The notes under the pieces were generated by a model. The model made no database searches. It was not told the origin of the DNA and worked only from the letters and a program-made list of their open reading frames with translations. The position numbers and the translations under genes are program-made. A stretch of DNA of 23,262 nucleotides from a virus. Positions 771 through 23,223 of this stretch are shown piece after piece. Each line of letters starts with the position of its first letter. Within the stretch, counting starts at the first letter, position 1. The stretch lies in IMG/VR virus record IMGVR_UViG_3300005298_000004; one strand, written 5' to 3'.

Positions 771-781
771 AACTTATCACC

Positions 782-1150: not shown

Positions 1151-1158
1151 ATTTTACG

Positions 1159-1692: not shown

Positions 1693-1712
1693 ATTATACA
1701 TTATACGATTGA

Positions 1713-1730
1713 TATTTATAACTTTTTCTC
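1713..1730 (-). promoter_or_regulatory. Archaeal BRE-TATA promoter (GAGAAAAAG-TTATAAATA)
   Basis: Purine run plus TATA box about 26 nt upstream of ATG 1692; overlaps the stop codon of the 707-aa gene. Confidence 0.6.
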
Positions 1731-3852: not shown

Positions 3853-3870
3853 TTAAAAAAATAAAAAATA

Positions 3871-4572: not shown

Positions 4573-4594
4573 ACATTAATTTATGATACTTAAG

Positions 4595-4611
4595 TAAATA
4601 AAAAGTTTTCT
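4595..4611 (-). promoter_or_regulatory. BRE-TATA promoter (GAAAAC-TTTTTATTT)
   Basis: About 27 nt upstream of ATG 4572. Confidence 0.5.
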
Positions 4612-7952: not shown

Positions 7953-10900
7953 TTATTTATATAATTCTCTAATCTTTCTTAATTTTGCTCTATTAATAAT
8001 TAATTCTTTCTCAAAGTCATCAATTACAATCCAATCGACCCCGAATTTCTTTACTTCTCCGTTCAAGGTTCTAACTCTGTCGATTTCTCTTCTTAATGCA
8101 TCTTCATCTATTATGTCGTAAACGTATAGATATATCAGTTCTGTTACTATACTGTTTATTTCTTCTGAAAGATTTCTTGCTAAAAGATAAGCTGGATATA
8201 GATTTACTTCATCATCAGGATATCCAAACATTTTAGCTTTTTCTACGATTTTCTGAATATCTATTGAAACATATTCTCCCATGCTGACGAGTTTATCTGG
8301 AGACCAGACTGCTGTTCTAACGTATTTTTCAATCATGGCGTCGATTAAAGCTTTATCAACTATATACTTCTCAAGTTCTTTTCTTGCTTGTTCGAATGTA
8401 ATAGCACCTCTTCTAAGTCTATTAAGTATGGCGTCTATCGCCATTTTAACTGCAGATTGTGACCTTTCAAAATCAGCAAATTCGGTTAAAATTTCAATCT
8501 CTCTCTGAGATTTTCCTAAATTCTTCAGATTTTGCTGGAATAATTCTTTAGTTATATAACCATCCATATATGCATCAATCATACTTCTAATCATTTTCGC
8601 TCTCTCATCTTTTATCGGTCGTATTCTGAATATCTGCAGAATAATTGGAATTTCATCCTGCGGAACACCCATCCATTCAAGTTTCTTTTTAACGTAATCT
8701 TCTGGAATATCGATGTATTCAGCATAACTGAGTATCGTAGAAATTGAAAGCGTATGTATCTTCATGTTCTTTTCAATTAATGCATCTGCTAAATCTTCAG
8801 ATAATCCAAGTTTTATGAGCTCGTTCTTTGCAATTGCTGGATCTATTGCACCTCTTCTTACCTTATTAAGTATCCCATCGGCAAGTGTTTTCTTGTAAAA
8901 GCCGTCATACATCAATTTAGCTATTTCAATGAATACTTGCTTTTCTTCTTCTGTAAGGGATGCATTAGCTACAATTTGATTGATTATTGTATTAAATTCG
9001 GCTTCACTCATGAAGCCTTCTGAAAATCTGTAAAGAATTCTGTATAGCATATATCTATACCAGTATCTTATTCTTTCCACAGTTCTAACTTTTTTCAATG
9101 CATCAGCAACTGGTTGATATAATTTGTAATATTCATCATCTAAGCCTAATGCTGGCAATTCTAATGATTTTGATATCGTAATAAGCTCTTCTTTAAGAGA
9201 TTTTGTCATTCCATCGAACGGAACTATATTTTCAACTACGCCTCTAAGCAAATCTTTAAAGTAATCTTTCATAATATCCATAGCTCTATCGTATTTCGCT
9301 CTTAATGCAAGTAATTTTATTTCACCATCAATAAAGCGAACTGGAACCTCTTTTCCGAGAATGTTTATTGTGGTTAAATTCGATAAAGTATTCATAAAAT
9401 TATTTATAGTCATGAATCCTTCTTTATACATATTTATTATGCCAGTTCTTACTAAAGTTCTTTCTTCCTGCAATGCATTCATGCACTCTGCGATTGTTAT
9501 TGGTTCAACCCATTTTGGATGCATTCCTCTTGAGACCACTATTAAGAATAACGCTTTTTCATCGAAATACTGATTGCCAGTTATTTCAGAAATTTCTTTT
9601 GGAATCGGAACAGACCATTTATACATCCATCTTGCATCGATTCTCATCGGAATATCGGCCATTAAGTCGAGATAAATGAGATTATCAGCTGTCCAGCCTT
9701 CAAGCCATGAAAACGGTGCGTAATCGTGCCATTTTGCGTAATGTTTGAGAACTTTTGAAACTATATCATTAAGCCTTTTCGCTACTTCCTCACTCGTGAA
9801 ATTCGATAAACCATAAAATCCCATAAGCCTTACTGGCGATACAGCTCCTTTTGCTCCTAAATCTTCCTCAATCGTTGGCTCTTCAGTTATCCACGCCTGC
9901 TTTGCGACCACTCTGCATGAAAAAGTCCATAAATCGCTCATACTTGGATACTTATAGTGTAGCAAGTAGTAGAGTTTTGCAAAATCTTCATAATAGCCTT
10001 TCATTGACATTAACGTTTTGAAGCTCTTTATTGCAAGTTCTGGTTTATTTGGAACTGAGAACAAATCTCTAATCATCATTCTCGAAAGGTCGCTTGGAGT
10101 CGGTAATTCATACAGCAAGCTAATTGGTGCTTTTCTTACTCTGCCAAATCTATCATAAAATTCGACAGACCACCCTTTAACATCCGCAGTAGTTGTTAAC
10201 CATGAAATCACTTCATCATTATATCCATGTAAACATAAATATCTATACATGCTTTCAAGAAGCCTATTAAATTTATTAGTTGGCATATGTCTTCTCGTTA
10301 TTTCTCTCATTTCAGCTATAGTTGGTAGTTCGACTGGTAATACATTCCTCCACATTGCGTTTGCAAGTTTTGAAATTGGTTGTGTTACCCAAATTGTCAT
10401 ACCGTAAAGCAGTCCTCTTCTAAATTCATCAGCATACTTTCCCATCATCTTTGCAAGACGAATAAACGGCTCTCCAACGTTGAATTTTATTTTAACTGTC
10501 TTCTCACCTTTAGCCTCACCTTCACCTTCAGCTCCGACTCCTGCTGGACTGCTTTTAGCTTTACCAGCACCTTTAAGAGTTACTGTAAACGAAGTTTCAT
10601 ATTTACTGAAAAATCCTCCAAGTTTAGTTAATGCAATTTTCATTCCGTTTGCAATATATTCTGAACCTATGAATACTACTGCTGTTGAACCTATCAATAA
10701 TACAGTCTCAATTAGCTGTCCTTTTTCTTTTCCAGCTACAATTCTGTCAATAAGGTCTAAAAAGAGCTTTTCGATTGGAACTGCTATATTAGAATATATC
10801 TTTTCAAATATACCTATTATAAGTTTAGATGTAAATTTACCAATAGGCTCCCATAACGATTGTGAAAAATTAACCAATCCCTCAACTACTGTCCAAAATC

Positions 10901-12437
10901 CGCTTAAAACAGTTTTTACTAAATTTGATGCAACAGTTACGAATCCGTTATAAAGAAGAACTGCAGTATCGTTTAAAACTTTAGGTATCATTTTTACTAA
11001 ATTAGAAATCATACTCGTTATTCCTGAATATATCCATGATAAAACACCGCTAACTGCATTCCAGACATCCAATAAAAACGTATTTAACGCACCGATTGGG
11101 TCTTTAACGAATCCTAATATCTTATTCCATATTACGTCAGCTACATTAGATATGAATTTGTAAATCGAATCAAAAGTTTTCCATACTGAATCAATTGCAT
11201 TCTTTAGCCAATCTGGAACTCCATTCCATATCCACTGCCCAAATGCACTAAATGCGTCAGAAATCGGCTTTATTACGTTTTTATTAAACCATCCTAATGG
11301 GTCTTTAGCAATTTCCGTAAAGAAGTCGCCAATCGCTTTAAGATAATTCGGAATGCTGTTTAGGAAATCGATTACATTTTTACGTATTTGTTCAAAGAAC
11401 AGAGCTATTCCAACAAGTGGATTAACGAAACCCTGAAAAGCAACAGCTATTTCTTTCATTCGTTCTGGTATATCTTTTACTTTTTCGAAAATCGCATCAA
11501 AAATCGGCTTTATGAACTCATGAATTTTCTCTGGAATTTCAGGAATAAAAGTAGCAATACCTTTTATCGCATCACCTAATGGAGTAATCGTTTTAACTAT
11601 AAATCCAGGGATTGCTGATACGGCTTCAAAAAGATTGCTCATCGATGATTGAATTGCTGACATTAAGCTTTGTATTGAACTTACTACCGATTGAAATCCT
11701 GCAATCGTTGCATTATATATGTTGGTTATGGTGTTAGTAATACTTTGTAAAACATTTTGTATATTTTCTACAAGACCACTAATGCTCTTATAGAGTGATT
11801 GTAACGTGTCGGATACTGCATTTTGTATATTGCTGATTGCACTAACAATATTCTGTAAACCTGACTGAAATGCTATTGAAACACTTTGAATTGAACTAAC
11901 TATGCTTGATAAACTTGTTTGAACTGTATTAGCTATATTTTGAACGATGTTGCTGATATTTGTAAAAGCATTTTGCACAACGTTTTGAATTGTTGATATG
12001 ATGCTTGATGTTGCAGTTGATATTAAATTCGTAAGATTACTGATACTACTTTGTAATGCATTTAAAACTGAAGATATTGAACTTGATATTGAACTTAAAG
12101 CACTTTTTAAATAACTGTATATAGAATCAAATGAAGATTTTACAGAATTTATAATCGAATTAACTGCATCGGATATAGCTTTTAAAACAGAAGTGCTTAA
12201 ACTCGATAATGCTGATTTAATCGTATTAATTATATAAGAACCAACATCTTCTATAAAATCCATTATTATTGTCGCCAACTGACCGAGTGGGTCGGTTACA
12301 CCGCCGTGTTCTACAAGAAACTCGTCCTCAATAACTAAATCGAGAGTTAAATCTTCTACAGGAACTACTTTACCAAATACGTTTACCAAAAGTTCAATAT
12401 CCGGTTTAAATTCGGTTACGGTTTCAGCCGACATCAT
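7953..12437 (-). CDS. 1494-aa large virion protein: tape-measure-like amphipathic helical N-half and helical-repeat C-terminus; candidate terminal-structure protein
   Basis: Long S/N/I/V-rich amphipathic periodic region, W-spaced repeats, hydrophobic segment, Gly-rich hinge, duplicated C-terminal units; start overlaps the upstream stop (ATGA). Confidence 0.85.
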   Translation of the reverse strand: MMSAETVTEFKPDIELLVNVFGKVVPVEDLTLDLVIEDEFLVEHGGVTDPLGQLATIIMDFIEDVGSYIINTIKSALSSLSTSVLKAISDAVNSIINSVKSSFDSIYSYLKSALSSISSSISSVLNALQSSISNLTNLISTATSSIISTIQNVVQNAFTNISNIVQNIANTVQTSLSSIVSSIQSVSIAFQSGLQNIVSAISNIQNAVSDTLQSLYKSISGLVENIQNVLQSITNTITNIYNATIAGFQSVVSSIQSLMSAIQSSMSNLFEAVSAIPGFIVKTITPLGDAIKGIATFIPEIPEKIHEFIKPIFDAIFEKVKDIPERMKEIAVAFQGFVNPLVGIALFFEQIRKNVIDFLNSIPNYLKAIGDFFTEIAKDPLGWFNKNVIKPISDAFSAFGQWIWNGVPDWLKNAIDSVWKTFDSIYKFISNVADVIWNKILGFVKDPIGALNTFLLDVWNAVSGVLSWIYSGITSMISNLVKMIPKVLNDTAVLLYNGFVTVASNLVKTVLSGFWTVVEGLVNFSQSLWEPIGKFTSKLIIGIFEKIYSNIAVPIEKLFLDLIDRIVAGKEKGQLIETVLLIGSTAVVFIGSEYIANGMKIALTKLGGFFSKYETSFTVTLKGAGKAKSSPAGVGAEGEGEAKGEKTVKIKFNVGEPFIRLAKMMGKYADEFRRGLLYGMTIWVTQPISKLANAMWRNVLPVELPTIAEMREITRRHMPTNKFNRLLESMYRYLCLHGYNDEVISWLTTTADVKGWSVEFYDRFGRVRKAPISLLYELPTPSDLSRMMIRDLFSVPNKPELAIKSFKTLMSMKGYYEDFAKLYYLLHYKYPSMSDLWTFSCRVVAKQAWITEEPTIEEDLGAKGAVSPVRLMGFYGLSNFTSEEVAKRLNDIVSKVLKHYAKWHDYAPFSWLEGWTADNLIYLDLMADIPMRIDARWMYKWSVPIPKEISEITGNQYFDEKALFLIVVSRGMHPKWVEPITIAECMNALQEERTLVRTGIINMYKEGFMTINNFMNTLSNLTTINILGKEVPVRFIDGEIKLLALRAKYDRAMDIMKDYFKDLLRGVVENIVPFDGMTKSLKEELITISKSLELPALGLDDEYYKLYQPVADALKKVRTVERIRYWYRYMLYRILYRFSEGFMSEAEFNTIINQIVANASLTEEEKQVFIEIAKLMYDGFYKKTLADGILNKVRRGAIDPAIAKNELIKLGLSEDLADALIEKNMKIHTLSISTILSYAEYIDIPEDYVKKKLEWMGVPQDEIPIILQIFRIRPIKDERAKMIRSMIDAYMDGYITKELFQQNLKNLGKSQREIEILTEFADFERSQSAVKMAIDAILNRLRRGAITFEQARKELEKYIVDKALIDAMIEKYVRTAVWSPDKLVSMGEYVSIDIQKIVEKAKMFGYPDDEVNLYPAYLLARNLSEEINSIVTELIYLYVYDIIDEDALRREIDRVRTLNGEVKKFGVDWIVIDDFEKELIINRAKLRKIRELYK

Positions 12438-12835
12438 CTACCACCTCTTATCCTCAATAAAGGTCTCGTTCTCAAATAAAATTGAACCTCAGAAATAACT
12501 TTATTTTTAAGTTCTTGTGGGTCTTTAACTCTGATATGAAAAGTTGGAGAAATATAATCACCCTCAACGATTCTGCAACCTAACAGATAAGATTTAAGCG
12601 GTAATTCTTTTCCAATTTTATTAACTTCCATTATTTCTAAATATATGGTCTTTTTAGAAACTACTTCAATATTTGGCTTAGAAAGTTCAGTTTCTGTTGG
12701 ATTTACAACGATTTTTGCATCTACAGAATGTATAATACCTTTACTACCGTCAGGTTTTATTACTTCTTGTTCTTTTCTTTCTTTAATATAATATACATCA
12801 AATTGTATTTTATCTCCACTATTTACTTCAAGCAT
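12434..12835 (-). CDS. Hypothetical 133-aa protein
   Basis: In-operon ORF, translationally coupled to the 1494-aa gene; TATA-like ATTTATTT about 25 nt upstream. Confidence 0.75.
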   Translation of the reverse strand: MLEVNSGDKIQFDVYYIKERKEQEVIKPDGSKGIIHSVDAKIVVNPTETELSKPNIEVVSKKTIYLEIMEVNKIGKELPLKSYLLGCRIVEGDYISPTFHIRVKDPQELKNKVISEVQFYLRTRPLLRIRGGR

Positions 12836-12891
12836 TAATTAAAAATATGCTTTTAAAAATAAATGCTTTTCTATCAGATTCGATAAAAATG

Positions 12892-13137
12892 CTATCCTAA
12901 TGATTTTTCGATATTAGATAATGCTCTTATGTGATTATCCAACACCTCTTTCAATTTATTTTGAGCATTTTCTTTATCGCTGATATAAACAAAACCGTGA
13001 GAAAGCTCCTGCAATCCCTTTAAAAAAATATAATGAACTTCATAAACTTTTATACCGCCTAATTCGACGAATGATTTTACTTTAGTTACTTTCAAACTGT
13101 ATCCTTTATCATCTATTTTAAACCCCTCTCTTATCAT
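12892..13137 (-). CDS. Hypothetical 81-aa protein
   Basis: In-operon ORF on the coding strand, 7 nt after the previous stop. Confidence 0.7.
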   Translation of the reverse strand: MIREGFKIDDKGYSLKVTKVKSFVELGGIKVYEVHYIFLKGLQELSHGFVYISDKENAQNKLKEVLDNHIRALSNIEKSLG

Positions 13138-13144
13138 AATTCAA

Positions 13145-13435
13145 TTACTTTCTTTTCTTAACCTCTTTAGCTCTCGAAGCAGACCTGACTGTAACCATAG
13201 CCTTATCCTGCAGTTCTTTCATAATTTTGGCTATCTCTTTTGCGATGTTAAAAACTCCGCACTCTTCTCTATCACCACATTCGCACGTAGCAACTTCAAA
13301 AACGAGTTTAGTAGAATAATTCAAAAGCTCTGCCTGAATGTTCCTCAATTCTTCAGCAAGCTTTGAATCTATGTCCGCAATTAGTTCATTTGCATTAGTC
13401 ATAAAATCTTCCGATTTAATTTCCTCAACATCCAT
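13145..13435 (-). CDS. Hypothetical about 96-aa helical protein with CxC-x5-C motif (start revised to ATG 13435)
   Basis: TCECGDREECG; TATTTATA box about 26 nt upstream of ATG 13435 fits a leaderless start better than TTG 13444. Confidence 0.7.
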   Translation of the reverse strand: MDVEEIKSEDFMTNANELIADIDSKLAEELRNIQAELLNYSTKLVFEVATCECGDREECGVFNIAKEIAKIMKELQDKAMVTVRSASRAKEVKKRK

Positions 13436-13470
13436 ATTTAACAATATATTGTCATGCTATAAATATTTTT

Positions 13471-14700
13471 TCATGTTACCATCGTCGATTCGATATCAGA
13501 TACACCTTTTAAAATTTTTACAGCATTTATTATATCTCTTAAGATTTTTTCATCATAACCCATCTTTTTGTATTTTTCAATCAAATCATCTTCAGTTAAA
13601 AGACGCTTCCATTGTTTGTATTTTCTGCTCGATTTGTAATGCATGTAAACGTATTCTTTTGCAAAAGCAACGTATCCTGCTCTTAAATTGCTAACAACGC
13701 CATAACGGTCTAAAATTGGTCTTACTCTTTCGATAATATGCTGTAGCCTTGCCTGATGCTTACCGCCTTCCCATTCAAGTTCATGCCTCTTTTGTAAAAA
13801 GAAAGTTCTCTGATAAATAGTATGCGTTGGAGTTGGCATTTGTGCAGTATACTCACTAATTTCGGGTCTAATTTCAACATTAAAATATTGTGTAATCGGA
13901 GTTTTACTCGAACGTATTTTAAATTCGTTTATTCTTTTTTCAAGCTCTTTTGCAAGCGGTTTTAGATGTGTTTGTCTATACGATTCTGCATTTGGAATCA
14001 CTCTACAATAATTTACTCTTGAGTAATTTACTGTTGTTTCATAAGGATATGCAGTATAAAATTGTTTTTCGGATTTAAAATCATCAGTTGTTCTCATAAG
14101 ACCAATACCGGACTTAAGCCCACGTCTGATTACTGATTGCATAACTTTAGATAAATTTACGATTGAAAAGCCGACATAAGCACTATTCAGCACTTTACCT
14201 TCAACTTTCATTAACTTTTCAATCATCATATCGATATAATGCTTAGATACTCCTTTCTTTTCGAGAATCTCTTTGTTTAACTCGATATATTTTCGCAGTG
14301 TTTCACCAACGTTTTTATAATCTGGAGAACTATCTTCAGTAGTTTTATATCTCATATCCCATAAAAATCTTGCGAGGTCTTGGTAAAGAATCTCTGGAGG
14401 GTCATATACACTTTCGCCGTATTTAGTTTGTCCATAATAAGCTTTATTTATTTTCGGCCAATCAAATCTGAAATCTGGCATCTGAAAATCGAATTCCTCA
14501 AATGGGAAATGCAAATCAAGCGATAAGTAAAAATCGAGTAAGAAATTAAATTCTAAATTGAAACTTATTGATAAATCGATATCGGGCAATGAAAACTCCC
14601 ATCTAAGCATGTTGAGGTTAAGCCAGTCTAAATCAGTGGTTTTCTCTATGTAATCTTCTTTCCTGTCTCGAATTTTTGCAACTGGGTCTACTCGTGGCAT
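13471..14700 (-). CDS. 409-aa minor structural protein with C-terminal SIRV2-MCP-like domain (MCP paralog)
   Basis: HQARLQHIIERVRPILDRYGVVSNLRAGYVAFAK...GYDEKILRDIINAV aligns with GQAVLTDIEKRVRGILDENGIFGISRVPYLNLAR...GLDATIVEEVIQAV of the 121-aa MCP. Confidence 0.75.
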   Translation of the reverse strand: MPRVDPVAKIRDRKEDYIEKTTDLDWLNLNMLRWEFSLPDIDLSISFNLEFNFLLDFYLSLDLHFPFEEFDFQMPDFRFDWPKINKAYYGQTKYGESVYDPPEILYQDLARFLWDMRYKTTEDSSPDYKNVGETLRKYIELNKEILEKKGVSKHYIDMMIEKLMKVEGKVLNSAYVGFSIVNLSKVMQSVIRRGLKSGIGLMRTTDDFKSEKQFYTAYPYETTVNYSRVNYCRVIPNAESYRQTHLKPLAKELEKRINEFKIRSSKTPITQYFNVEIRPEISEYTAQMPTPTHTIYQRTFFLQKRHELEWEGGKHQARLQHIIERVRPILDRYGVVSNLRAGYVAFAKEYVYMHYKSSRKYKQWKRLLTEDDLIEKYKKMGYDEKILRDIINAVKILKGVSDIESTMVT

Positions 14701-14706
14701 AATACA

Positions 14707-15819
14707 CTAATTAATTTCTATAATTTCATCATCATGTAAATTAATTAATTCGAGAACTTCTGCAGGTATCTTAAGTTTAAGTTCTTTCATTAATTCTGCA
14801 TATTTTATATGATAATCCCAATTTTTCGTCCATTCCCTGGCTTTTATACAATACTCATTATATTCATCTTTGCTGTTTTTGTAAACGTCTATCGCATAAG
14901 CGATGACTTCTGCAAGCATATCTGGAGTAAATAAGTGAAATATCCAGTTTTGATAAGCATTCGCTTTAACTATCTGCTTATCGATGTAGCTAAATGTAAA
15001 ATTGAATTCTGAAGATGAAAACTCGTTTAAAGGCGGAAAATCGCAATGTATGGCTGGAATTCCTACAGCATTAGCTTCTAAAACTGGTAATCCGAAACCT
15101 TCACAAACTGCTGGATGGATTAAATAATCACAGCTGGCTATGTAACCTAAAATTAATTCATGTGAAGAACCTCCAAAAGGCTTGATAAAAACTACATTAT
15201 TGATTCCATCGAATAACTCTTTAGCACTTTCATCAGTTATCAGAAAAACGATGTAATCGTTTTGATAACCTTTATCATTTAATATTTTAAGTGCTTCAGC
15301 AAAATTTTTCAAATTCTTTCGAGGGTCATGTCTTGCAACCACTATGAATTTTATTTTATCTTTAGCATAATTATCTATTTGTCTTTTTTGATACTGATTT
15401 TTATTTCGGATTTCGCCACAAAGCCTCCAATCTACTGCATGATGAATCACCTTTTTTACTTTTAATCCAGAATTCACTAAACACTCTCTTACATAATTGC
15501 TGACCGCTATAAATTCACACTTTGTTATATTAGAATTAATAACGTTTCCTTTCGTTAAATATCCTTCGCAAGTAACGTATAAAAATTTTGGTTTATCACT
15601 TAAGATATATGGAACTATGGCATCACCAATGAAATTTATTGTTGCAAGCTGAAACCATGCACCCGCTATAACATCATCAGATTCTAAATCCTTCAAAGAT
15701 ATCATAGATTTAAATACTGCTTCATACTCACTCTTTTCAACCAACTTTTTGAATAACATTGCTTGATTTATCATCGAATCTGCATTAAGTGACGAAATCA
15801 ATACCGTTTTACCAACCAT
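14707..15819 (-). CDS. Glycosyltransferase, GT4 (GT-B fold)
   Basis: VARHDPRKN and HPAVCEGFGLPVLEANAVGIPAI (EX7E) motifs; adjacent to the MCP as in rudiviruses. Confidence 0.92.
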   Translation of the reverse strand: MVGKTVLISSLNADSMINQAMLFKKLVEKSEYEAVFKSMISLKDLESDDVIAGAWFQLATINFIGDAIVPYILSDKPKFLYVTCEGYLTKGNVINSNITKCEFIAVSNYVRECLVNSGLKVKKVIHHAVDWRLCGEIRNKNQYQKRQIDNYAKDKIKFIVVARHDPRKNLKNFAEALKILNDKGYQNDYIVFLITDESAKELFDGINNVVFIKPFGGSSHELILGYIASCDYLIHPAVCEGFGLPVLEANAVGIPAIHCDFPPLNEFSSSEFNFTFSYIDKQIVKANAYQNWIFHLFTPDMLAEVIAYAIDVYKNSKDEYNEYCIKAREWTKNWDYHIKYAELMKELKLKIPAEVLELINLHDDEIIEIN

Positions 15820-15838
15820 ATTTATAAATAAACATCAC

Positions 15839-15854
15839 AATATAAAAGTTTTTC
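15839..15854 (-). promoter_or_regulatory. BRE-TATA promoter of GT4 operon (GAAAAAC-TTTTATAT)
   Basis: About 25 nt upstream of ATG 15819; no SD present, consistent with a leaderless transcript. Confidence 0.6.
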
Positions 15855-15879
15855 TTATGATTTTAAAAATTTATCAATT

Positions 15880-15894
15880 AAAAAAAAAGAAAAA
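15880..15894 (-). terminator. Oligo-T archaeal terminator after the MCP gene
   Basis: TTTTTCTTTTTTTTT on the minus strand about 45 nt downstream of the MCP stop. Confidence 0.6.
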
Positions 15895-15936
15895 GGGAAT
15901 CTCTGAAAAATTTCTGAATTCTAAGTATTATTGATT

Positions 15937-16302
15937 TTAATAACTCGTTGTGCCTATGACTGCCTGAATGACTTCCTCAACGATGGTTGCGTCGAGACCT
16001 TCAGCAATAGCCTTCTGCTTCCATGCGTTAGCTACTCTCTGCAAAGCCAAACCGCTGTTGCTTCCGCTCGCCCTAACAAGGGCTCTTGCAAGATTCAGAT
16101 ATGGAACTCTCGAAATTCCGAAAATTCCGTTCTCATCAAGAATGCCTCTAACCCTCTTCTCGATATCGGTCAAAACGGCCTGGCCTCTTTGCTGAAGCTG
16201 AACCATCTTATTCTTTCTTATTTCGAACTTAGTTTTGACTACGTCAGGTATTACGGCAAGCTCGTAATTCTCAACCCTATCCGTAAAATCCCTATACGGC
16301 AT
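15937..16302 (-). CDS. Major capsid protein, SIRV2-like alpha-helical fold (Tokiviricetes)
   Basis: 121 aa; V..IL.E.GI.G..R..Y...A..L.RA...SG.AL......K...I....D.......V...I.G pattern matches the rudivirus MCP as recalled. Strong SD AAGGAGGTGA, own terminator, C-ending codon bias suggesting high expression. Confidence 0.82.
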   Translation of the reverse strand: MPYRDFTDRVENYELAVIPDVVKTKFEIRKNKMVQLQQRGQAVLTDIEKRVRGILDENGIFGISRVPYLNLARALVRASGSNSGLALQRVANAWKQKAIAEGLDATIVEEVIQAVIGTTSY

Positions 16303-16455
16303 TCACCTATCACCTCCTTTATTTTTTTTGTTCAATATGATTATAACATTCATAATAAAATAAATTTTTCGGTCTTTTTATTAATTTCGTTAGATAATAT
16401 AAATTAAGTCAGCAATAGCTAAATATATATACTTTAAGTTACGAAAATTAAGTAT

Positions 16456-16800
16456 ATGAATAACATAATTAGTCCAAACATAAAAGAAGTCTCTGAGACA
16501 ATTCGCCAGGATGATGATGAAAATGAAAAAGATGAAGATATTTCTAAATTATCGCTTACAGAAAAAATTGCATTAATATTAAGACAAAAATTTAAAAACA
16601 TTCCAGAAAAAGAACTAAATGATTTGGCGAATGAGCTTGCAATTGGGCTACTTGATGCAGAATCACGAAAGCATTATGCATTAGGTATATTGCATAGAGC
16701 TAAAAACTACGTGCATGGATATCTTAAAGACTATCGAATTGAAAGCGAAATACAAGATAAAACTTATCCTCTTGTGTTAGTCGTAAAAATTTATTTCTAA
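16456..16800 (+). CDS. Hypothetical 114-aa protein; the only convincing plus-strand gene
   Basis: Occupies a gap with no minus-strand gene; AAATATATATA box at about 16421-16431, about 25 nt upstream; converges on the minus-strand operon. Confidence 0.7.
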   Translation: MNNIISPNIKEVSETIRQDDDENEKDEDISKLSLTEKIALILRQKFKNIPEKELNDLANELAIGLLDAESRKHYALGILHRAKNYVHGYLKDYRIESEIQDKTYPLVLVVKIYF

Positions 16801-16811
16801 AAAAAATTTAT

Positions 16812-16973
16812 TTATAAAAGTCTATTAATTTCGTTTATCAAAGTTATTGCGTATTCTCTTATTTGCTTTAACGTATTTTTATCAGCAGAACTTAAAGGCG
16901 GTCTAACGTCGTCCATCAAGATTAAAGCGTTCTCAAGGCTTCTTTTAACAAGTTCTAACGATTTATTAGTCAT
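16812..16973 (-). CDS. Hypothetical 53-aa helical protein (below the ORF-track cutoff)
   Basis: SD GGAGGTGG; MTNKSLELVKRSLENALILMDDVRPPLSSADKNTLKQIREYAITLINEINRLL*; followed by a T-run. Confidence 0.7.
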   Translation of the reverse strand: MTNKSLELVKRSLENALILMDDVRPPLSSADKNTLKQIREYAITLINEINRLL

Positions 16974-16976
16974 ATT

Positions 16977-17165
16977 TCAACACCACCTCCTAAAATGTTT
17001 ACAAACAAAATTTGGATACACATAAATTGGGTCTCTCTTAAGCATGCATTTTCCAGTGATTTCACTGTCTGGCTTAAAATGCATGCATACAAGACATCTT
17101 CGATAAATACTACCTTTGTTCAGATGCTTTTCAAGAAGTTTATCTAAAGCTGATTTTTCTGACAT
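16977..17165 (-). CDS. 62-aa Cys-rich putative Zn-binding protein
   Basis: CLVCMHF...C...CKHF pattern. Confidence 0.7.
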   Translation of the reverse strand: MSEKSALDKLLEKHLNKGSIYRRCLVCMHFKPDSEITGKCMLKRDPIYVYPNFVCKHFRRWC

Positions 17166-17328
17166 TATGAACCACCCACTCAGCGACTTTTGCTATTCCA
17201 TACATAATCAATCCTGCGAGGGTTGCGAACATTAAGAATATCAATGGAACAATAGACATAATAAAAATTATTATTGCGATAGACTTCAATATTGCTTCAA
17301 TCAAAAACATTTCCATTTTGACCACCAC
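17140..17328 (-). CDS. 62-aa membrane protein
   Basis: About 40-aa hydrophobic stretch; start overlaps the upstream stop. Confidence 0.65.
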   Translation of the reverse strand: MVVKMEMFLIEAILKSIAIIIFIMSIVPLIFLMFATLAGLIMYGIAKVAEWVVHNVRKISFR

Positions 17329-17765
17329 TACTTGAATATTATTCTTGCCATCGCAAGCTTTGTTTCATCATTTAGTTTAGCACTTTGTTTACCCTGTGGG
17401 GTCTCGATAAATGTATCTATTGCACTTTTTACGTTATTCAAGTCTACTCCAAGTCTTGTTTCAATCTGATTAATGGTTGCTAATGTTTTTTTCTTGTATC
17501 GCATTATATCACGTTCATCGAATTTTTGTTCTACAGCATGTTTAAGCTGAGCTACTGAATTCACAAGTTTAAAAGCATACCAAAGCCCCCTATCAACGTC
17601 GTAACCATGATGATACTCCTTATCTCCGCTTTTATATGTTTGTTCTTTCGCAAATTGCCTCACTGCAAGCTCAATTACCTGGTATTTCTTTAATCCTCTT
17701 CTTTTCGCTACTTCATCAACAATCTTCTTCACATCTTCTTTTACGGCAATATGCTTCCACACCAT
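17328..17765 (-). CDS. Ribbon-helix-helix (CopG-like) DNA-binding protein with C-terminal extension
   Basis: KHIAVKEDVKKIVDEVAKRRGLKKYQVIELAVRQF fits RHH; SD GAGGTGA. Confidence 0.7.
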   Translation of the reverse strand: MVWKHIAVKEDVKKIVDEVAKRRGLKKYQVIELAVRQFAKEQTYKSGDKEYHHGYDVDRGLWYAFKLVNSVAQLKHAVEQKFDERDIMRYKKKTLATINQIETRLGVDLNNVKSAIDTFIETPQGKQSAKLNDETKLAMARIIFK

Positions 17766-17800
17766 TTTGCATCACCTCTATGTAATAGTTATGTAACTAA

Positions 17801-17818
17801 AGGTATATATACTTTTCC
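17801..17818 (-). promoter_or_regulatory. BRE-TATA promoter (GGAAAAG-TATATATA) of the RHH operon, immediately beyond the IS right end
   Basis: Canonical spacing upstream of the SD and ATG 17765. Confidence 0.6.
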
Positions 17819-17825
17819 AAAACTA

Positions 17826-18947
17826 TTACTTGACATTCTCCACGGCTAAAGCCGGGAGATTCTCCCTTCTCAGCCCCAGAGCATTCGGAACTTCCTTCAT
17901 CTGCCCCGGGACATCACATGGAGTTTCGGGCTGTGTCAAATCAGCCCCTACCTTGGACATATAGCCCAAGGCTCGTTTTAAGATGTTTAGAGCTCCATTA
18001 TAATCTGCGTTCAGCTCAACTCCGCATTTACTGCAAACAAATTTTCCGTTGCGTCTCAAACCTTGAGAACCACAACGGGAGCATATTCTGGATGTATTAG
18101 CTTCATTAACCTTTATAACTGCTATTCCTTCCCATAAGGCTTTGTATTCAATAAATTTGGACAAGCGATAATATGGAAATGTGTTTAGCTTTCTGTTGAA
18201 CTTTCTTCCTTTATTTTGTTTTCTAATTCCTTTCAAATCACCAAGAACTATTACGGCATTTTCTTCTTTAGCTTTGTTAACTATCTCTTTTGAAATTTTA
18301 TGTAGTAAGTCGTCAACCATTCTTCTTTCTTTATTTCCAATCTTTTTTATCGCTTTAAACTTCTTCAGTTTACCCAATTTCCTTCTGAGATGGAAATAAT
18401 GTCCTCGAATTCTTCTGAGTTCTTTTCCGTAGAACCTCGGCTTGCCGTCGGCAGTAGAAACGACTGTAGCGATATTTCTAATCCCTAAATCAATAGCTAT
18501 AACGTTCTCATATTCCTTCTTAATTTCTACTTCTTTCTCCATCGTTATATGCACGAACCATCCGTTTTTCTTTCTTATAACCTTGGCTTCCTTAAACTTC
18601 CAACTCAAATCTATTTCACAATGCGGTCTTATTGGCAGTTTTATACCACCTCTGACTCCATGAACCGGTATTTTAATCCAATATTTTGATAACTTGTTGT
18701 TAGTTATCCGCACATCATAAACGTCATTACGAAGAATAAGAGGATACTCTTTTTGCTTGAGCTTTCCTCTTTGTTTTCTGATTTTCCTTAATAGTCTTTC
18801 AGCCTGTTGTTTGGTCGCAGAATAAAGTTCGACATCTTCTCCCCTTAAAGCCTTCTGAAAGTTATTGTATTCTTTCTCAAGGGCTTTCAGCTTTCTGCTA
18901 TTTGCTTCATCCATGATTTTGGCCTTGATGACTTTTCTAACCAGCAT
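17826..18947 (-). CDS. tnpB: TnpB RNA-guided nuclease
   Basis: RuvC-I IAIDLG, RuvC-II region IVLGDL...VNEANTS, Zn finger CSRCG/CSKCG, RuvC-III NADYNGALNI; TAATG coupling to tnpA. Confidence 0.95.
   Translation of the reverse strand: MLVRKVIKAKIMDEANSRKLKALEKEYNNFQKALRGEDVELYSATKQQAERLLRKIRKQRGKLKQKEYPLILRNDVYDVRITNNKLSKYWIKIPVHGVRGGIKLPIRPHCEIDLSWKFKEAKVIRKKNGWFVHITMEKEVEIKKEYENVIAIDLGIRNIATVVSTADGKPRFYGKELRRIRGHYFHLRRKLGKLKKFKAIKKIGNKERRMVDDLLHKISKEIVNKAKEENAVIVLGDLKGIRKQNKGRKFNRKLNTFPYYRLSKFIEYKALWEGIAVIKVNEANTSRICSRCGSQGLRRNGKFVCSKCGVELNADYNGALNILKRALGYMSKVGADLTQPETPCDVPGQMKEVPNALGLRRENLPALAVENVK
17830..17990 (-). ncRNA. Predicted omegaRNA/reRNA scaffold overlapping the tnpB 3' end; 5' boundary approximate
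   Basis: Established for TnpB elements: the scaffold derives from the right end and the guide from flanking DNA (here GTAATAGTTTTGGAAAAG...). GC-richer, hairpin-containing region. Confidence 0.5.
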
Positions 18948-19339
18948 TATCTCCCTCTCTGAGCCTCAATATACTTCTCGACTGTTTCTTTTGAAACATT
19001 GCCGATAGTTGCAACGAAGTATGAATGAGTCCACAGCGATGGGAGTTTTAGTAGTTCAGGGAACTCTTGCCTTAAAATGCGGGAAGTTCTGCCCTTTATC
19101 TTCCTTACAATCTTATGAACTGGAATTGTTGGATGAGCTGAAATGAACAAATGTATGTGATCTGAATTTACTGTAAGTTCGATAACCTTAATCCCTAATT
19201 CTTCTGCAACCTCATAAATAATTTGTTTCAATCTTTCCTTGATTTTTCCAATCAAAACTGGTTTTCTACGTTTAGAACACCAAACCAAATGATACTGAAT
19301 TAAATACACCTTATTTTTTGAATGTTGATAGTCGTTCAT
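18947..19339 (-). CDS. tnpA: IS200-type Y1 HUH transposase
   Basis: YHLVW..K.RK, DHIHL (HUH), LW..SYFV, YIEAQ catalytic Tyr. Confidence 0.95.
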   Translation of the reverse strand: MNDYQHSKNKVYLIQYHLVWCSKRRKPVLIGKIKERLKQIIYEVAEELGIKVIELTVNSDHIHLFISAHPTIPVHKIVRKIKGRTSRILRQEFPELLKLPSLWTHSYFVATIGNVSKETVEKYIEAQRGR

Positions 19340-19365
19340 CTATAAACAATTAGTGTCGTTGTATT

Positions 19366-19399
19366 TAAACTTATCGATAATCTAAACTTATCGACAATC
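19366..19399. repeat. 17-bp tandem direct repeat in the tnpA promoter region
   Basis: TAAACTTATCGATAATC / TAAACTTATCGACAATC (1 mismatch), abutting the TTTAAATA box about 25 nt upstream of tnpA. Confidence 0.85.
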
Positions 19400-19535
19400 C
19401 CATTCACCTCTCCTAATTCATCTTATGATTAAAATCATGAGCTTTCTTAACGACTTTATTGTAATCTTTTCTTAGCCATCCATAACGCATAACTTTTTGC
19501 CACCTCTAAACAACATTTTTAGAGCTGAAAAAAGA

Positions 19536-20648
19536 TTACAAAATACTCTTCAAGGATTCCGCAAGAGCTTTTGCCATCAACGGAGGAACTGCATTACCAA
19601 TCTGCTTGAATGCTGAAGTCATCGATTTTGGAAATATGAACGTATCGGGAAAGCTCTGAAGCCTTGCAGCTTCTCTAACTGAAATCGTTCGAGGGGGTTC
19701 TGGTTCGTCAGGTCGGCTTGGATATATATAACTGCGTGTATCTTTAAATATATTAGCTACGATTGTCCATGATGGAGCATTTCTTATCAGCTTTCTGTAT
19801 TTTTCTTTGAAAATCTTACCACGATATCTTCTTAATTCTAATGGCACATCTGAATAAAGACCGCCTTCGGGTAATATTGAAAATATGTATAAATCTTGTT
19901 CATTATGCCATCTTGTTACATGGTTATAAAGTGTATTACCTGCATTTTCACGCATCATTTTTTGATATTTTGTAAGCTTGCAACGTGGACTATAAGGCAT
20001 TTCTGCAATTCTGAAGCCGTGTGGTATTATAGGTAAATCAGAAATTGCTTCCCACACTGTAACGGGGGTATCTGTAGTTTTTTCTGGAAAAGGTATATCA
20101 TTACTAATTCTTGAACCAACTAAAAATAATCTTTTTCGAATTTGTGGAACTCCATAATCTGCAGAATTTAAAACTTTATACTTTACAAAATATCCGAGGT
20201 CATTTGCAACTTTAGCAATTAATTCAGGCATTAATTGATTTAGATATTTTACACTTAACATACCCTGAACATTTTCTATTACAAATAAATCTGGCTTTAA
20301 ATCTTCAACAAAACGCATGAAATGAGTCCATAAAAACGTGCGGGGGTCGTCAATAGGATTTCTACCAAGCGATTTCAATACACATCTACCGATTGAACTG
20401 AAAGTCTGACATGGAACACCTGCAATAATTGCGTCTACATACTCCATTTCGGTATGTTCAATGAAAAATTCCTTAGGTTTTTTGATTTTAGAAATATCTG
20501 CAAGAACAGCATGTCCTATGTTTTTAGAATACGTCTCTACGCACTTATTATCAAAATCAATCCCTAATACGGATTTAAATCCAGCCATTTCGAATCCGAG
20601 ACTTAATCCTCCCGCACCGCAAAAAAGATCCAAAATATATTTGGTCAT
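19536..20648 (-). CDS. dcm: DNA (cytosine-5) methyltransferase
   Basis: Motifs I FCGAGG, IV GVPCQ, VI ENV, VIII Q.RKR, IX RLQSFPD, X GNAV; SD GAGGTGA; no cognate restriction enzyme recognised in the window. Confidence 0.95.
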   Translation of the reverse strand: MTKYILDLFCGAGGLSLGFEMAGFKSVLGIDFDNKCVETYSKNIGHAVLADISKIKKPKEFFIEHTEMEYVDAIIAGVPCQTFSSIGRCVLKSLGRNPIDDPRTFLWTHFMRFVEDLKPDLFVIENVQGMLSVKYLNQLMPELIAKVANDLGYFVKYKVLNSADYGVPQIRKRLFLVGSRISNDIPFPEKTTDTPVTVWEAISDLPIIPHGFRIAEMPYSPRCKLTKYQKMMRENAGNTLYNHVTRWHNEQDLYIFSILPEGGLYSDVPLELRRYRGKIFKEKYRKLIRNAPSWTIVANIFKDTRSYIYPSRPDEPEPPRTISVREAARLQSFPDTFIFPKSMTSAFKQIGNAVPPLMAKALAESLKSIL

Positions 20649-20704
20649 GCTTTATCACCTCTCATGTATTTTTGATATTACTTTCAATGAATATATATTT
20701 TATC

Positions 20705-20842
20705 TTATCGATTTATTGAACATACTGGAAAATCATCTAACTCATGATACATACAAGTTCCGTCTTCATCAATTTCAATGTAATCTAAATCACACCACCC
20801 CCCATGATTATATTTACATTTTGAAAAGCACCTAATCGCCAT
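20705..20842 (-). CDS. 45-aa Cys-rich protein, DUF1540-like (below the ORF-track cutoff)
   Basis: MAIRCFSKCKYNHGGWCDLDYIEIDEDGTCMYHELDDFPVCSINR*; TGATG coupling to hjc and upstream GGTGA. Confidence 0.65.
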   Translation of the reverse strand: MAIRCFSKCKYNHGGWCDLDYIEIDEDGTCMYHELDDFPVCSINR

Positions 20843-21231
20843 CACTCATCACCTAAAAGAATGTCACGATTCATTTTTATATCATTTTTAAGTTTAAAAA
20901 ATTCGTCAATAGTCAAGATTTTGGTAATCCATCTTCCTTTGAATCTAAAACGAATCGCAAGCATCACTTTTACGTTGAAATCCTTTTCGAACTGCCTTAA
21001 CTCCTCAATTTCTTTTTTGCTGATTCGTGGTAGCTGATTTAGCTTTGAGGTCTTTTTACACTGAATGCATAAAGGTTTTTCATATTCTGTTGAAGCCCTG
21101 GGTATGGCGATAACGTCGCAAAGCCTATGACTTCCTGCACTTCTTATTGTGTAATAACCCTCTTTCTCAAGCTGTTTCATTACGAACTCTTCAAGAACGT
21201 AGCCTCTGCGATAAAAAGTAGTTTTAGACAT
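20842..21231 (-). CDS. hjc: Archaeal-type Holliday junction resolvase
   Basis: RG...E....L...GY..IRSAGS...DVIA...IQCK pattern. Confidence 0.88.
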   Translation of the reverse strand: MSKTTFYRRGYVLEEFVMKQLEKEGYYTIRSAGSHRLCDVIAIPRASTEYEKPLCIQCKKTSKLNQLPRISKKEIEELRQFEKDFNVKVMLAIRFRFKGRWITKILTIDEFFKLKNDIKMNRDILLGDE

Positions 21232-21233
21232 TG

Positions 21234-21938
21234 TTAATCACCCGGATTCTCATATTCAGGAACTCCGCCACGCTTTCTGATTTCGTATTCGATAGAATCA
21301 TTAATTCCGTTATAGATGTTATCTGAAATCGTAAAGATGAATCCAAGAATCGTTAGCATCAATGAAAGCTTATCTTCGAATTTATGATATTTATTTATGT
21401 TCCATAAATCATTCAAAACTACATTAACAAATTCATCGATTTTTTCAGTATCTTCTTTAAATTGATTTTTTAGTTGCTCAACGTCAAAGCCCCTTACGAA
21501 ATAAATGACGCTTTTGATGATGCTTAAAATTATGTTGTAAGTATACTCTATAACGAGAAAAACCGTAGGATTATTTTCGAAATCCTCAGCAACCACTTTA
21601 AGAAGTTCTAAAAGATGATTCAAGCTTGCTAAAAGTATATTGACCTCAAACCATAAGGAATGCTTCATCATGCTCTTTATTACGTTTATTGAATCAGTAG
21701 TCAGTTTATCGCTTAATTTCATCACTTTTTTAGCAAGTTTATCCGATATAGCACTTTCAAGCACCCTCAAAAAGCCTATAGATATAACGTTGATTTTGTT
21801 AATCTCTAAAGAAAGCCCTGTCAGCAGTGTAACGCTTCTCATAAACATCAAATCCGTCTCTGAAACCGGCGTGAACTCATATGCGTCAAAGAACTTATTT
21901 TCAAGTATTTTATCTACAACATTTTCGTCCCCCTTCAT
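21234..21938 (-). CDS. Hypothetical 234-aa alpha-helical protein
   Basis: Long in-operon ORF; CAAAAAG-TATTATAT promoter about 27 nt upstream. Confidence 0.8.
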   Translation of the reverse strand: MKGDENVVDKILENKFFDAYEFTPVSETDLMFMRSVTLLTGLSLEINKINVISIGFLRVLESAISDKLAKKVMKLSDKLTTDSINVIKSMMKHSLWFEVNILLASLNHLLELLKVVAEDFENNPTVFLVIEYTYNIILSIIKSVIYFVRGFDVEQLKNQFKEDTEKIDEFVNVVLNDLWNINKYHKFEDKLSLMLTILGFIFTISDNIYNGINDSIEYEIRKRGGVPEYENPGD

Positions 21939-22004
21939 GATATAATATTTGTAGCAACTGCTATATAATACTTTTTGTCTTAAAGTTCAAGACAAAAAAG
22001 TTTT

Positions 22005-22679
22005 TTATATCAAACCCAGCTCAAGCAATTCTGCAACAGTATCTGATGTGCATTTTTCGTAAAAAGGACAGGAATCGCAGAATTGCCTTCTTGCGGATAA
22101 CGGAAGGTTTACTTCTGGCGGAATATCGTTATCAAGTGCTTTTTTCAGCAATTTTGCTTTTTCAAGGGTCTGCTGGAACATTCGATGATTTTTTTCGCAT
22201 TCGAAAACTACGGTATCGGCTTGAACTTTCGATATATAAACCAAATAACCGATTTTTTTATCCAGTATATTCATGTATACGTTTAACTGCTCAACATGGG
22301 ACAATTTTGGCTTAATTGGAAGTTTACTGCATGTTTTCAGCTCAATAATGGAATCATCAAGAAGAACATCAACACGTCCGTGAATCTCCACATCTTCAAA
22401 TTTATAATTTATTGATACCTCTTTCTGCCCTTTAAATGCCTCTGCAATGGCTGGAGTGATTAAATCATGAAATAATCCGCCGAACAATAGCCATAAAGCT
22501 GTTGATTCATCAACTTGAAATCCATATTTTTTTATGTAATAACTGCGTCTTATACAGCCCACAAGGTCTGTAACATAAATCTTTTTGTTTTCCTTAATTC
22601 CGTTTTTAGTTGCTGAATTGATGAGTGTCTGCTTTACAAGATTCTTCAATTTTTGAGAATAATCGTTATTGCCAAGCAT
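22005..22679 (-). CDS. cas4: Solo Cas4-like (RecB-type, 4Fe-4S) nuclease
   Basis: VTDL..C.RR.YY, G..FH, GRVD, IELKT, QL..Y, CDSCPFYEKC; no CRISPR array or other cas gene in the window. Confidence 0.88.
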   Translation of the reverse strand: MLGNNDYSQKLKNLVKQTLINSATKNGIKENKKIYVTDLVGCIRRSYYIKKYGFQVDESTALWLLFGGLFHDLITPAIAEAFKGQKEVSINYKFEDVEIHGRVDVLLDDSIIELKTCSKLPIKPKLSHVEQLNVYMNILDKKIGYLVYISKVQADTVVFECEKNHRMFQQTLEKAKLLKKALDNDIPPEVNLPLSARRQFCDSCPFYEKCTSDTVAELLELGLI

Positions 22680-23223
22680 ATAGCTCCACCACGTTTTTTA
22701 TAGTGTTATTTCTGATTAGCTTTTTCTGCAATTTATAGTTATGCATCAAAAACTGAATACGTTCATATGTAAGTAATTCTAAAGTCATCCATTCGATTTT
22801 TGCTTTCAATTTAGATTTCATTCTACCCTGACATTTGAAATAAACATGTCCGAGAAAAGTATTGTGATATACGGCAAAATCTTTGTATTTTGGATAAAAA
22901 ATCGCAGGATAAACCATGCATTGAAATGGTCTAACGTCATAAATCGTGCATTTACCATTATCATAAAAAATGCAGTAACTCGTATTATTGATTTGTTTTG
23001 TTTTTATAGATACGGTATAATAATTAGGTTCAAGCAAAAACACCCTATCAAAATGAACCCCTAAATAGCGTAAAATATCAATCATTTCGGGTATCGTTAC
23101 GAGTATTCTGTTATTTTGACAGCAATAACCGCATCTTTGACAACTATCTTCAAATCTTAAATGTTGCTTAACAAATTCCTTAATTTTTTTATCCCAGTCT
23201 ATTAAATATTCGATTTTATTCAT
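22666..23223 (-). CDS. YkgJ/UPF0153-family (CxxCxxCC) Fe-S or Zn cluster protein
   Basis: CQRCGYCC...CIFY...CTIYDVRPFQC..YP. Confidence 0.85.
   Translation of the reverse strand: MNKIEYLIDWDKKIKEFVKQHLRFEDSCQRCGYCCQNNRILVTIPEMIDILRYLGVHFDRVFLLEPNYYTVSIKTKQINNTSYCIFYDNGKCTIYDVRPFQCMVYPAIFYPKYKDFAVYHNTFLGHVYFKCQGRMKSKLKAKIEWMTLELLTYERIQFLMHNYKLQKKLIRNNTIKNVVELYAWQ

Follow-up and report, generated by a model that had tools for sequence, protein, structure and literature searches.

Viruses of the realm Adnaviria were long thought to be limited to the acidophilic Sulfolobales and Thermoproteales, and metagenomics now adds methanotrophs, Bathyarchaeia, Asgard archaea, Thermococcales and Caldarchaeales. 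In papers of 2023-2026, the Ahmunviridae, the Baiyanviruses and the Demeterviridae/Gaiaviridae share a core block together with accessory genes. The Ahmunviridae (Maximonvirales) are defined by Methanophagales virus PBV300 (OP413840 / NC_074636), whose linear genome of 41.5 kb carries inverted terminal repeats. Two Thermococcales-linked ahmunvirus genomes have been described, one of 19,616 bp and one of 23,291 bp without terminal redundancy, in which a 122-aa major capsid protein (MCP), MCP-1, lies in a block with a glycosyltransferase (GT), a large minor structural protein and small open reading frames (ORFs); they also encode Hjc, a DUF2341 ConA-like protein and a Cas4-like exonuclease (PMC12934983, a 2026 preprint). 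A second MCP of 131 aa, a second GT and a ricin-type lectin are further features of published ahmunviruses. The Baiyanviruses, which are Asgard-associated Adnaviria, and PBV300 are described as having a single MCP, a GT downstream of it and an MCP-like minor structural protein (MSP) (PMC13700489). The present work concerns a 23,262-nt stretch of viral DNA, IMG/VR record IMGVR_UViG_3300005298_000004 (this whole stretch is called the window below), which encodes an MCP of 121 aa. With moderate confidence, we read it as part of an uncultured rod-shaped Adnaviria (Tokiviricetes) virus from a distinct, unnamed MCP clade within the rudivirus-ahmunvirus assemblage, most probably in or beside an expanded Ahmunviridae or the Baiyanvirus-like viruses, and not as a new kind of virus.

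The MCP gene (15937..16302) lies, like all 28 plausible genes of the window, on the minus strand, and its product is the sole full-length MCP encoded there. Compared alone with the Pfam family Sulf_coat_C (PF12193), the protein scored 21.5 bits, under the cut-off of 25.2. An exhaustive phmmer search with the MCP gave 39 relatives, and the profile of an alignment of 27 sequences (A1) matched the capsid proteins of SSRV1 (6wq0, 4e-17) and SIRV2 (3j9x, 1e-15) in the PDB over essentially the full length of the MCP; the matches to SFV1 (6d5f, 3e-12) and AFV1 (5w7g, 2e-7) were weaker than those to the rudiviral proteins. The profile comparison of the MCP with SIRV2 gp26 gave 1e-19, and Sulf_coat_C was matched individually by 19 of the 27 A1 members. 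The AlphaFold (AF2) model, with a mean predicted local distance difference test (pLDDT) value of 90.4, begins with a long helix and continues as a helix bundle. When this model was run against the PDB with Foldseek, ranks 1-8 were all Adnaviria capsid proteins, with a template modelling (TM) score of 0.70 to both SSRV1 and SIRV2 and superposition of the C-terminal bundle at 1.2 Å root-mean-square deviation.

The first-pass annotation, made from the letters of this DNA, had let its reading depend in advance on the 121-aa protein having the SIRV2 MCP fold, and this is the fold recovered by profile and model alike. Because the family profile and the fold are decisive despite the sub-threshold Pfam score, the capsid identity is settled: judged from these two predictions, the protein is an MCP of the Tokiviricetes (SIRV2) type. 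The broader description as a filamentous archaeal virus of the Tokiviricetes, also proposed by that annotation, is well supported by the same profile and predicted fold. The archaeal signal GGAGGTGA that it had reported was found in 2 copies in the window, against 0.2 expected, and one of them stands 7 nt upstream of the MCP ATG.

A search of all window ORFs with the A1 hidden Markov model (HMM) found no second short MCP in this partial genome; only the MCP and a domain of the MSP matched. A second similar-sized MCP was likewise absent from the related contigs, including L059, L060 and L062. Relatives encode extra MCP-fusion proteins, in which a complete N-terminal MCP domain is followed by 80-270 further residues, and a 387-aa ORF on one contig (L059:12373-13530) is such an N-terminal fusion. 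In the closest long relative of the window, IMGVR_UViG_3300013099_000018, whose MCP is 79% identical to that of the window and which is called the long relative below, two more proteins with an N-terminal MCP domain lie at the far end, past the point where the window is cut; its extra MCP-domain ORFs are of 226 and 203 aa (L007:10354-11034 and 11009-11620).

Directly downstream of the MCP gene is a GT4 glycosyltransferase (14707..15819; PF00534, 1.2e-14; phrog_2170, 1e-29), as the first-pass annotation had claimed. It is closest to SIRV2 gp28 (ORF335), the GT that adjoins the SIRV2 MCP (phmmer, 2e-27), and is 69% identical to the GT4 of the long relative. The next gene (13471..14700) encodes a 409-aa protein with no match in Pfam, which we consider an MSP with a C-terminal MCP-like domain (approximately residues 300-400; A1 HMM domain E-value of 1e-12). 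When this domain was aligned with the MCP by hhalign, the probability was 97.7% and the E-value 1.9e-12; no MCP signal was found by hhalign in the N-terminal half. The model of the MSP reached a moderate pLDDT of 72, with AFV1 ORF140 and the SIRV2 capsid as top Foldseek matches. The protein is kept across the clade at 31-99% identity and has no significant phmmer match to SIRV2 ORF488. PBV300 and the Demeterviridae are reported to have a protein in which two MCP units are fused; this was considered for the MSP but is not shown, as the MCP profile matches the C-terminal half only.

Three small ORFs of 99, 81 and 133 aa (12434..13444), without family matches, stand between the MSP and a 1494-aa coiled-coil giant protein (7953..12437), and occur in the same order in the long relative and in the contigs L029, L030 and L062. 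The giant protein, whose Pfam matches are coiled-coil noise, is related to SIRV2 gp38 (P1070; phmmer, 8e-8), a terminal-fibre protein according to the literature, and homologues of 1219-2012 aa are found at the matching position in relatives. The whole block of MCP, GT4, MSP, small ORFs and giant protein is kept both in the close relative L062 and in the distant sister clade represented by L060, in which the MSP is 39% identical.

Further along the module, a 294-aa protein (7035..7919) is a relative of SIRV2 gp42 (ORF269; phrog_5335, 4e-15; phmmer to gp42, 1.5e-6). The second copy of GGAGGTGA (7944-7951) precedes a 15-codon mini-ORF and not the start of this gene. The TTG start listed for the 294-aa gene, at 7919, is in another frame than the mini-ORF; the start is therefore uncertain, and there may be a frameshift at this place. 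A 276-aa sulfotransferase-like protein (6187..7017), also inside the structural module, has an N-terminal RSGTT loop and a language-model similarity of 0.97, and all of its top language-model clusters are Sulfotransfer_1/3 families; it is 67% identical in the long relative and has no match in Pfam or NCBIfam. A sulfotransferase had been part of the first-pass annotation, and this part of it survives through the loop and the language-model similarity, at a place far outside the annotated range of 13471-22679.

The distal part of the module (3..5960) is a structural or host-recognition block of proteins of 449, 233, 707, 180 and 122 aa, together with a 256-aa ORF that the contig end truncates, and is collinear with the long relative at 43-76% identity. 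The 707-aa protein carries DUF2341 (4.7e-21), an annotation that it has in common with SIRV2 gp39 (P564). Where the window encodes the 180-aa protein (1159-1701), the homologue in the long relative (L007:4469-6046) has 525 aa and shows weak, sub-threshold Hint, intein-splicing and LAGLIDADG matches, which suggests an intein in a virion-module gene. Counting the nucleases described below, at least 7 window genes have SIRV2 counterparts (gp26, gp28, gp19, gp35, gp38, gp42 and gp39). The statement of the first-pass annotation that the structural module differs from those of the Sulfolobales viruses was therefore largely wrong, as the 1494-aa, 707-aa and 294-aa proteins correspond to P1070, the DUF2341 protein P564 and gp42.

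In an MCP tree of 80 sequences and 123 columns, whose deeper forks lack resolution, the window MCP falls in a 17-member clade with a value of 97 in the Shimodaira-Hasegawa-like approximate likelihood ratio test (SH-aLRT). This clade is nested in a 38-member group with weak support (SH-aLRT 80), and both are apart from SIRV2 and the PF12193-positive MCPs, which share another clade. When the MCP and the MSP were searched by tblastn against 50,697 GenBank virus records, rudiviruses included, there was no match, and no named or deposited virus was among the MCP or MSP homologues found. The tree and the searches thus support a distinct MCP clade in which there are dozens of members from metagenomes and none that is named. 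Contigs of 2.9-6.7 kb that are nearly identical to the window (98.4-99.7% nt identity) were present in five other assemblies. Metagenomes containing this virus are JGI 3300005278 and ENA ERZ650669, ERZ27289263, ERZ27289264 and ERZ27245891. Contigs of another MCP clade, with proteins of 123-132 aa (P0022, P0039), are too short to show whether such MCPs occur together with one of the window type.

The few NCBI records of the clade are 'hypothetical proteins' on contigs in metagenome-assembled genomes (MAGs) that are inconsistent with one another. The MAGs holding clade contigs (P0059, P0068, P0077, P0131; G066:C153, C60; G113:C70) are labelled Cloacimonadota, Thermoprotei, Thermotoga, Crocinitomicaceae, Syntropharchaeia-class and Archaeoglobi-class, and the MAG-binned clade records that were looked up are on contigs of approximately 2-15 kb. 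This is likely to be mis-binning, which contaminates the MAGs and hides the viruses in public databases.

The window is the whole of a metagenomic contig that bears only a partial genome, because ORFs are cut by the boundary at both ends and 21 of the 28 genes are collinear with the longer relative. The longest contig on record for the MCP of the window has 23,262 bp, the length of the window itself. The window is 94.5% coding at a GC content of 33%. Tokiviricetes genomes are linear double-stranded DNA with inverted terminal repeats and with ends that are closed covalently or linked to protein. No terminal inverted repeats were found between the window ends, both of which sit inside ORFs, and neither tRNA genes nor Rfam families were found along it. 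The long relative is a contig of 104,260 bp whose halves are exact reverse complements around a palindromic centre at 52130/52131. As the contig is an exact inverted duplication, its unit genome is at least 52,130 bp, above the range of 17.6-41.5 kb given for Adnaviria genomes by the ICTV, the international virus taxonomy committee, and the IMG/VR label of this record ('inverted terminal repeat, 90% complete') is for the same reason an assembly effect. The palindromic assembly, in which one terminus only is visible, suggests read-through of a covalently closed hairpin end or of a head-to-head replicative junction. In rudivirus genomes the strands may be covalently linked (ICTV), and such ends are known for SIRV1.

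Collinearity with the unit of the long relative extends over its positions 17.4-50.4 kb, with 21 of the 28 window genes in common at a mean aa identity of 56%. By this alignment, the window would represent roughly half of the virus genome, namely the central and right-hand part of a linear double-stranded DNA genome, and appears to be without a terminal arm of approximately 17 kb and without the far end. The arm of the long relative (L005:3651-5537, 14411-15052) encodes class-II glutamine amidotransferase-like, COOH-NH2 ligase-like and thymidylate-synthase-like proteins. No replication protein was recognised among ten ORFs scanned in it; genes for replication initiation, if present, would sit in this arm, which is missing from the window.

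The reading that we favour, a lineage in or beside the Ahmunviridae or the Baiyanvirus-like viruses, draws on gene content and order, and several points weigh against it. The Ahmunviridae, the Baiyanviruses and the Demeterviridae/Gaiaviridae were compared with the window through their published descriptions, so that the placement beside Ahmunviridae rests on descriptions and not on sequence comparison. The second short MCP (by the A1 profile) and the second GT and lectin (by Pfam) of published ahmunviruses were not found in the partial window, and the window, with 33% GC, comes from a terrestrial hot spring, in contrast to the marine ANME-1/Thermococcales setting of that family. The N-terminal MCP fusions of Baiyanviruses carry DUF6385, whereas the MCP-fusion proteins in relatives of the window gave no DUF6385 match in their C-terminal extensions. 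No protein of PBV300 was among the MCP and MSP homologues in a collection that included NCBI nr; this is a weak, word-based negative, but it argues for a considerable distance, as far as such a search can tell. Finally, a virion that is probably non-enveloped, and an MCP that is likely to form a homodimer because there is one short MCP only, are both inferred.

The alternative that survives best is a new family-level lineage of the Tokiviricetes, distinct from Rudiviridae, Ahmunviridae, Chiyouviridae, Demeterviridae, Gaiaviridae, Samediviridae and Baiyanviruses and infecting a thermophilic archaeon, which we hold to be possible but clearly the less probable of the two. Almost no clade member has a precomputed PF12193 match, so that surveys based on PF12193 would miss the clade, and this can be set beside its SH-aLRT value of 97, its position apart from the SIRV2/PF12193 clade and the lack of a named virus among the MCP and MSP homologues. 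IMG/VR holds only two clade contigs, and neither sample number turned up in the searched portions of the supplementary files to the ANME-1, Thermococcales and Nitrososphaeria papers. The unit of at least 52.1 kb in the long relative exceeds the ICTV range, and the GC content of 33-35% differs from the 46-51% of Demeterviridae and Gaiaviridae. In its fullest form, to which we give a similarly tentative standing, this alternative would describe a family overlooked through its sub-threshold MCP, with genomes of at least 52 kb that are the largest of the realm and end in covalently closed hairpins, and with one MCP accompanied by MCP-derived accessory capsid proteins; its host would be a low-GC thermophile from near-neutral hot springs and hydrothermal sediments for which no virus is known so far. 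However, gene content and order are very close to the published descriptions of ahmunviruses and Baiyanviruses, one of the Thermococcales-linked ahmunvirus genomes is, at 23,291 bp and without terminal repeats, near the 23,262 bp found here, and missing word-based matches to PBV300 are no measure of distance. The first-pass annotation had likewise proposed a probable new lineage, which is partly supported: a separate and unnamed MCP clade speaks for it, whereas the architecture, already published in 2023-2026, speaks against it.

It is very improbable that the window belongs to the Rudiviridae proper, as a divergent genus of Sulfolobales rod-shaped viruses. The closest solved MCPs are those of the rudiviruses SIRV2 and SSRV1, the single MCP adjoins a gp28-type GT, homologues of gp19 (Cas4-like), gp35 (Hjc), gp38 (P1070), gp39 (DUF2341) and gp42 are present, and the GC content is low as in Sulfolobales. 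On the other hand, the MCP is in a clade separate from that of SIRV2 and the PF12193-positive proteins, the MCP and MSP have no tblastn match in the GenBank rudiviruses, only about a quarter of the genes (approximately 7 of 28) have SIRV2 counterparts, the long relative is, at 52 kb or more, well over rudiviral sizes, and the source is a 77 °C cellulolytic enrichment. The weakest of the alternatives, a defective provirus, a plasmid-like element or a cellular region with captured rod-virus genes, could appeal to the fragments of related elements in MAGs of several phyla and to the insertion sequence (IS) described below, yet it is scarcely credible for a window in which 94.5% of the sequence is coding, on a single strand, and in which a full structural module is accompanied by neither an integrase nor cellular genes (Pfam), whose near-identical contigs recur in independent assemblies, whose relatives are in short contigs of MAGs with inconsistent labels (Thermotoga, Cloacimonadota, Crocinitomicaceae, Thermoprotei), which is typical of mis-binning, and whose long relative ends in a terminal palindrome and not in host DNA.

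If the window is part of a rod-shaped virus of this assemblage, as we favour, the homology to SIRV2 and SSRV1 and the literature on them would let MCP dimers wrap linear DNA into a rigid helical rod; in the Tokiviricetes, DNA wrapped in this way is in the A-form. GT4 could glycosylate virion proteins, which the sulfotransferase-like enzyme would perhaps modify further. Structures at the virion ends that bind the host may be built from the giant P1070-like protein together with the 409-aa MCP-like protein, the protein with DUF2341 and the beta-rich proteins of the distal block. If the genome ends are covalently closed hairpins, its head-to-head concatemers could be processed and resolved by the gp19-type nuclease and Hjc.

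Upstream of the MCP, a small-ORF cluster is headed by the gene for a conserved 145-aa protein (17328..17765), possibly a ribbon-helix-helix regulator (weak phrog_3887 match, 1.2e-3), which is 60% identical in the long relative. Beyond it lies an IS200/IS605 insertion (17824..19464), which had been left out of the first-pass annotation of 13471-22679. It encodes a Y1 TnpA (18947-19339; PF01797, 7e-42) and a TnpB (17826-18947; PF07282, 1e-23; PF01385, 3.5e-10) with OrfB_IS605 and zinc-ribbon (TNB) domains, a combination that identifies it as IS200/IS605. The element is delimited by whole-IS copies of 76-79% nt identity in four archaeal MAGs, namely Ca. Alkanophaga, Ca. Methanoxibalbensis, Archaeoglobus and a Thermoprotei MAG, in which TnpB is 78-83% identical. 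The IS copies were also considered as a guide to the host, but the four MAGs are about equally distant, so that no host is indicated. Three near-identical sister contigs (L029, L032, L033) part from the window at 17836, the IS end, where they read TTAC|GTAATAG and the window reads TCAA|GTAATAG, with a different gene beyond.

A C5 cytosine DNA methyltransferase (19536..20648; PF00145, 3e-67), a Holliday junction resolvase Hjc (20842..21231; PF01870, 2e-10; SIRV2 gp35, 7e-4; 66% identical in the long relative) and a Cas4-like PD-(D/E)XK nuclease homologous to SIRV2 gp19 (22005..22679; phrog_1706, 1e-33; Pfam Cas_Cas4 and PDDEXK; phmmer to gp19, 5e-15) are present according to Pfam, in agreement with the first-pass annotation. 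The best GenBank virus matches of the Cas4-like nuclease are Sulfolobales rod-shaped and filamentous viruses, at 25-31%. A 234-aa ORF between the two nucleases (21234..21938) has no Pfam or NCBIfam family at E <= 0.01 and a weak, probably spurious match to the phrog_37955 'portal protein' (4.4e-4); it was also considered as a sulfotransferase and rejected, having neither the motif nor a sulfotransferase family match. A further gene encodes a 185-aa CxxCxxCC (YkgJ-type) metal-binding protein (22666..23223; PF03692, 9e-11), 46% identical in the long relative. The first-pass annotation was correct in naming a YkgJ protein, which lies mostly past the range that it covered.

The long relative has no counterpart of TnpA, the C5 methyltransferase or the 234-aa ORF, and the only match of the window TnpB there is a paralogue, 27% identical, that belongs to another element. 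Because of this absence, the IS element, the C5 methyltransferase, which is purely accessory here, and the 234-aa ORF are, as far as comparison of the two contigs goes, strain-specific cargo and not lineage markers; the methyltransferase had been used as such a marker in the first-pass annotation. The stretch from Hjc to the 145-aa gene can likewise be regarded as a variable island, because the three sister contigs diverge at the IS end and carry another gene. Sister strains have a gene of the PAPS-reductase family in place of the IS and the methyltransferase (L033:3-578; L062:1-369, with PF01507 in L062). Together with the sulfotransferase-like gene (6187-7017), it gives a hint that sulfur activation or DNA modification is a theme of the clade.

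Great Boiling Spring is near-neutral, unlike the habitats of Sulfolobales. From a 77 °C enrichment of this spring comes a contig (L031, JGI 3300005278) in which a stretch of 4.7 kb is 99.5% identical to the window. The Thermotoga, Thermoprotei, Cloacimonadota and Crocinitomicaceae MAGs with other clade members are presumably from hydrothermal sites. For the host, the window DNA was searched against 576 genomes (96 Archaeoglobi-class, 79 Syntropharchaeia-class and 401 Thermoprotei-class) for CRISPR spacers. There were matches of 27-47 nt, and none of the 11 places checked was in a repeat array; the longer matches were fragments of related viruses binned into MAGs, which are weak host evidence at best. 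These spacer searches found no host, in line with the statement of the first-pass annotation that the window does not reveal it.

The contig adds to the Adnaviria a further capsid-protein clade, whose dozens of metagenomic members come from hydrothermal samples and from a hot-spring enrichment at 77 °C. This clade would escape domain-based virus screens because its MCP is under the Pfam capsid threshold. Its closest long relative suggests genomes above the current size range of the realm, with hairpin-type ends like those of rudiviruses. The conserved block of MCP, GT and capsid-like MSP supports one virion-building module common to rudiviruses, ahmunviruses and the new relatives, while the known picture of how such viruses work is unchanged.

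Among the described groups, the Lipothrixviridae, Ungulaviridae and Tristromaviridae are enveloped and have two paralogous MCPs of similar size that form a heterodimer, in contrast to the one short MCP found in the partial window. The Caldarchaeales-associated Demeterviridae and Gaiaviridae (bioRxiv 10.1101/2025.08.23.671958) are, like the window, rod-shaped viruses of hot springs, some from samples of the Great Boiling Spring type, with an MCP adjoining a GT and a larger MCP-derived gene in the same island. It is nevertheless unlikely that the window belongs to either of them, because the MCPs of Demeterviridae are clear PF12193 matches and the two families have 46-51% GC (approximately 46-47% in Demeterviridae), compared with a sub-threshold MCP (21.5 bits) and 33% GC here. 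The UbiG-like and ArsR-like genes of Demeterviridae were not seen in the window, and matching Caldarchaeales spacers are also a feature of that family. With the Rudiviridae, whose single MCP forms a homodimeric capsomer, the hairpin or head-to-head ends that the assembly of the long relative suggests could be added to the shared genes discussed above; its bigger genome and the other habitat set the two apart.

The Baiyanviruses (PMC13700489) differ from the window in their TGT and TFB, which were not seen in this partial genome, and in having hosts assigned to Njordarchaeales and Baldrarchaeia, whereas no host link was found for the window. They are alike in having a single MCP, a GT directly downstream, an MCP-like MSP, Hjc and a methyltransferase, and an additional protein with the MCP domain at its N-terminus occurs in some of them, as in the relatives of the window. 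The Ahmunviridae differ in genome size, with 41.5 kb or approximately 20 kb compared with at least 52 kb in the long relative. Set against the published text, however, the window has the same order of MCP, GT4, 409-aa MSP, three small ORFs and 1494-aa protein, with Hjc upstream. An MCP-derived gene adjoins the GT in PBV300 as well, and the DUF2341 protein and the Cas4-like exonuclease are found in both. Judged by these descriptions, the lineage is probably inside or next to a group that has already been described.

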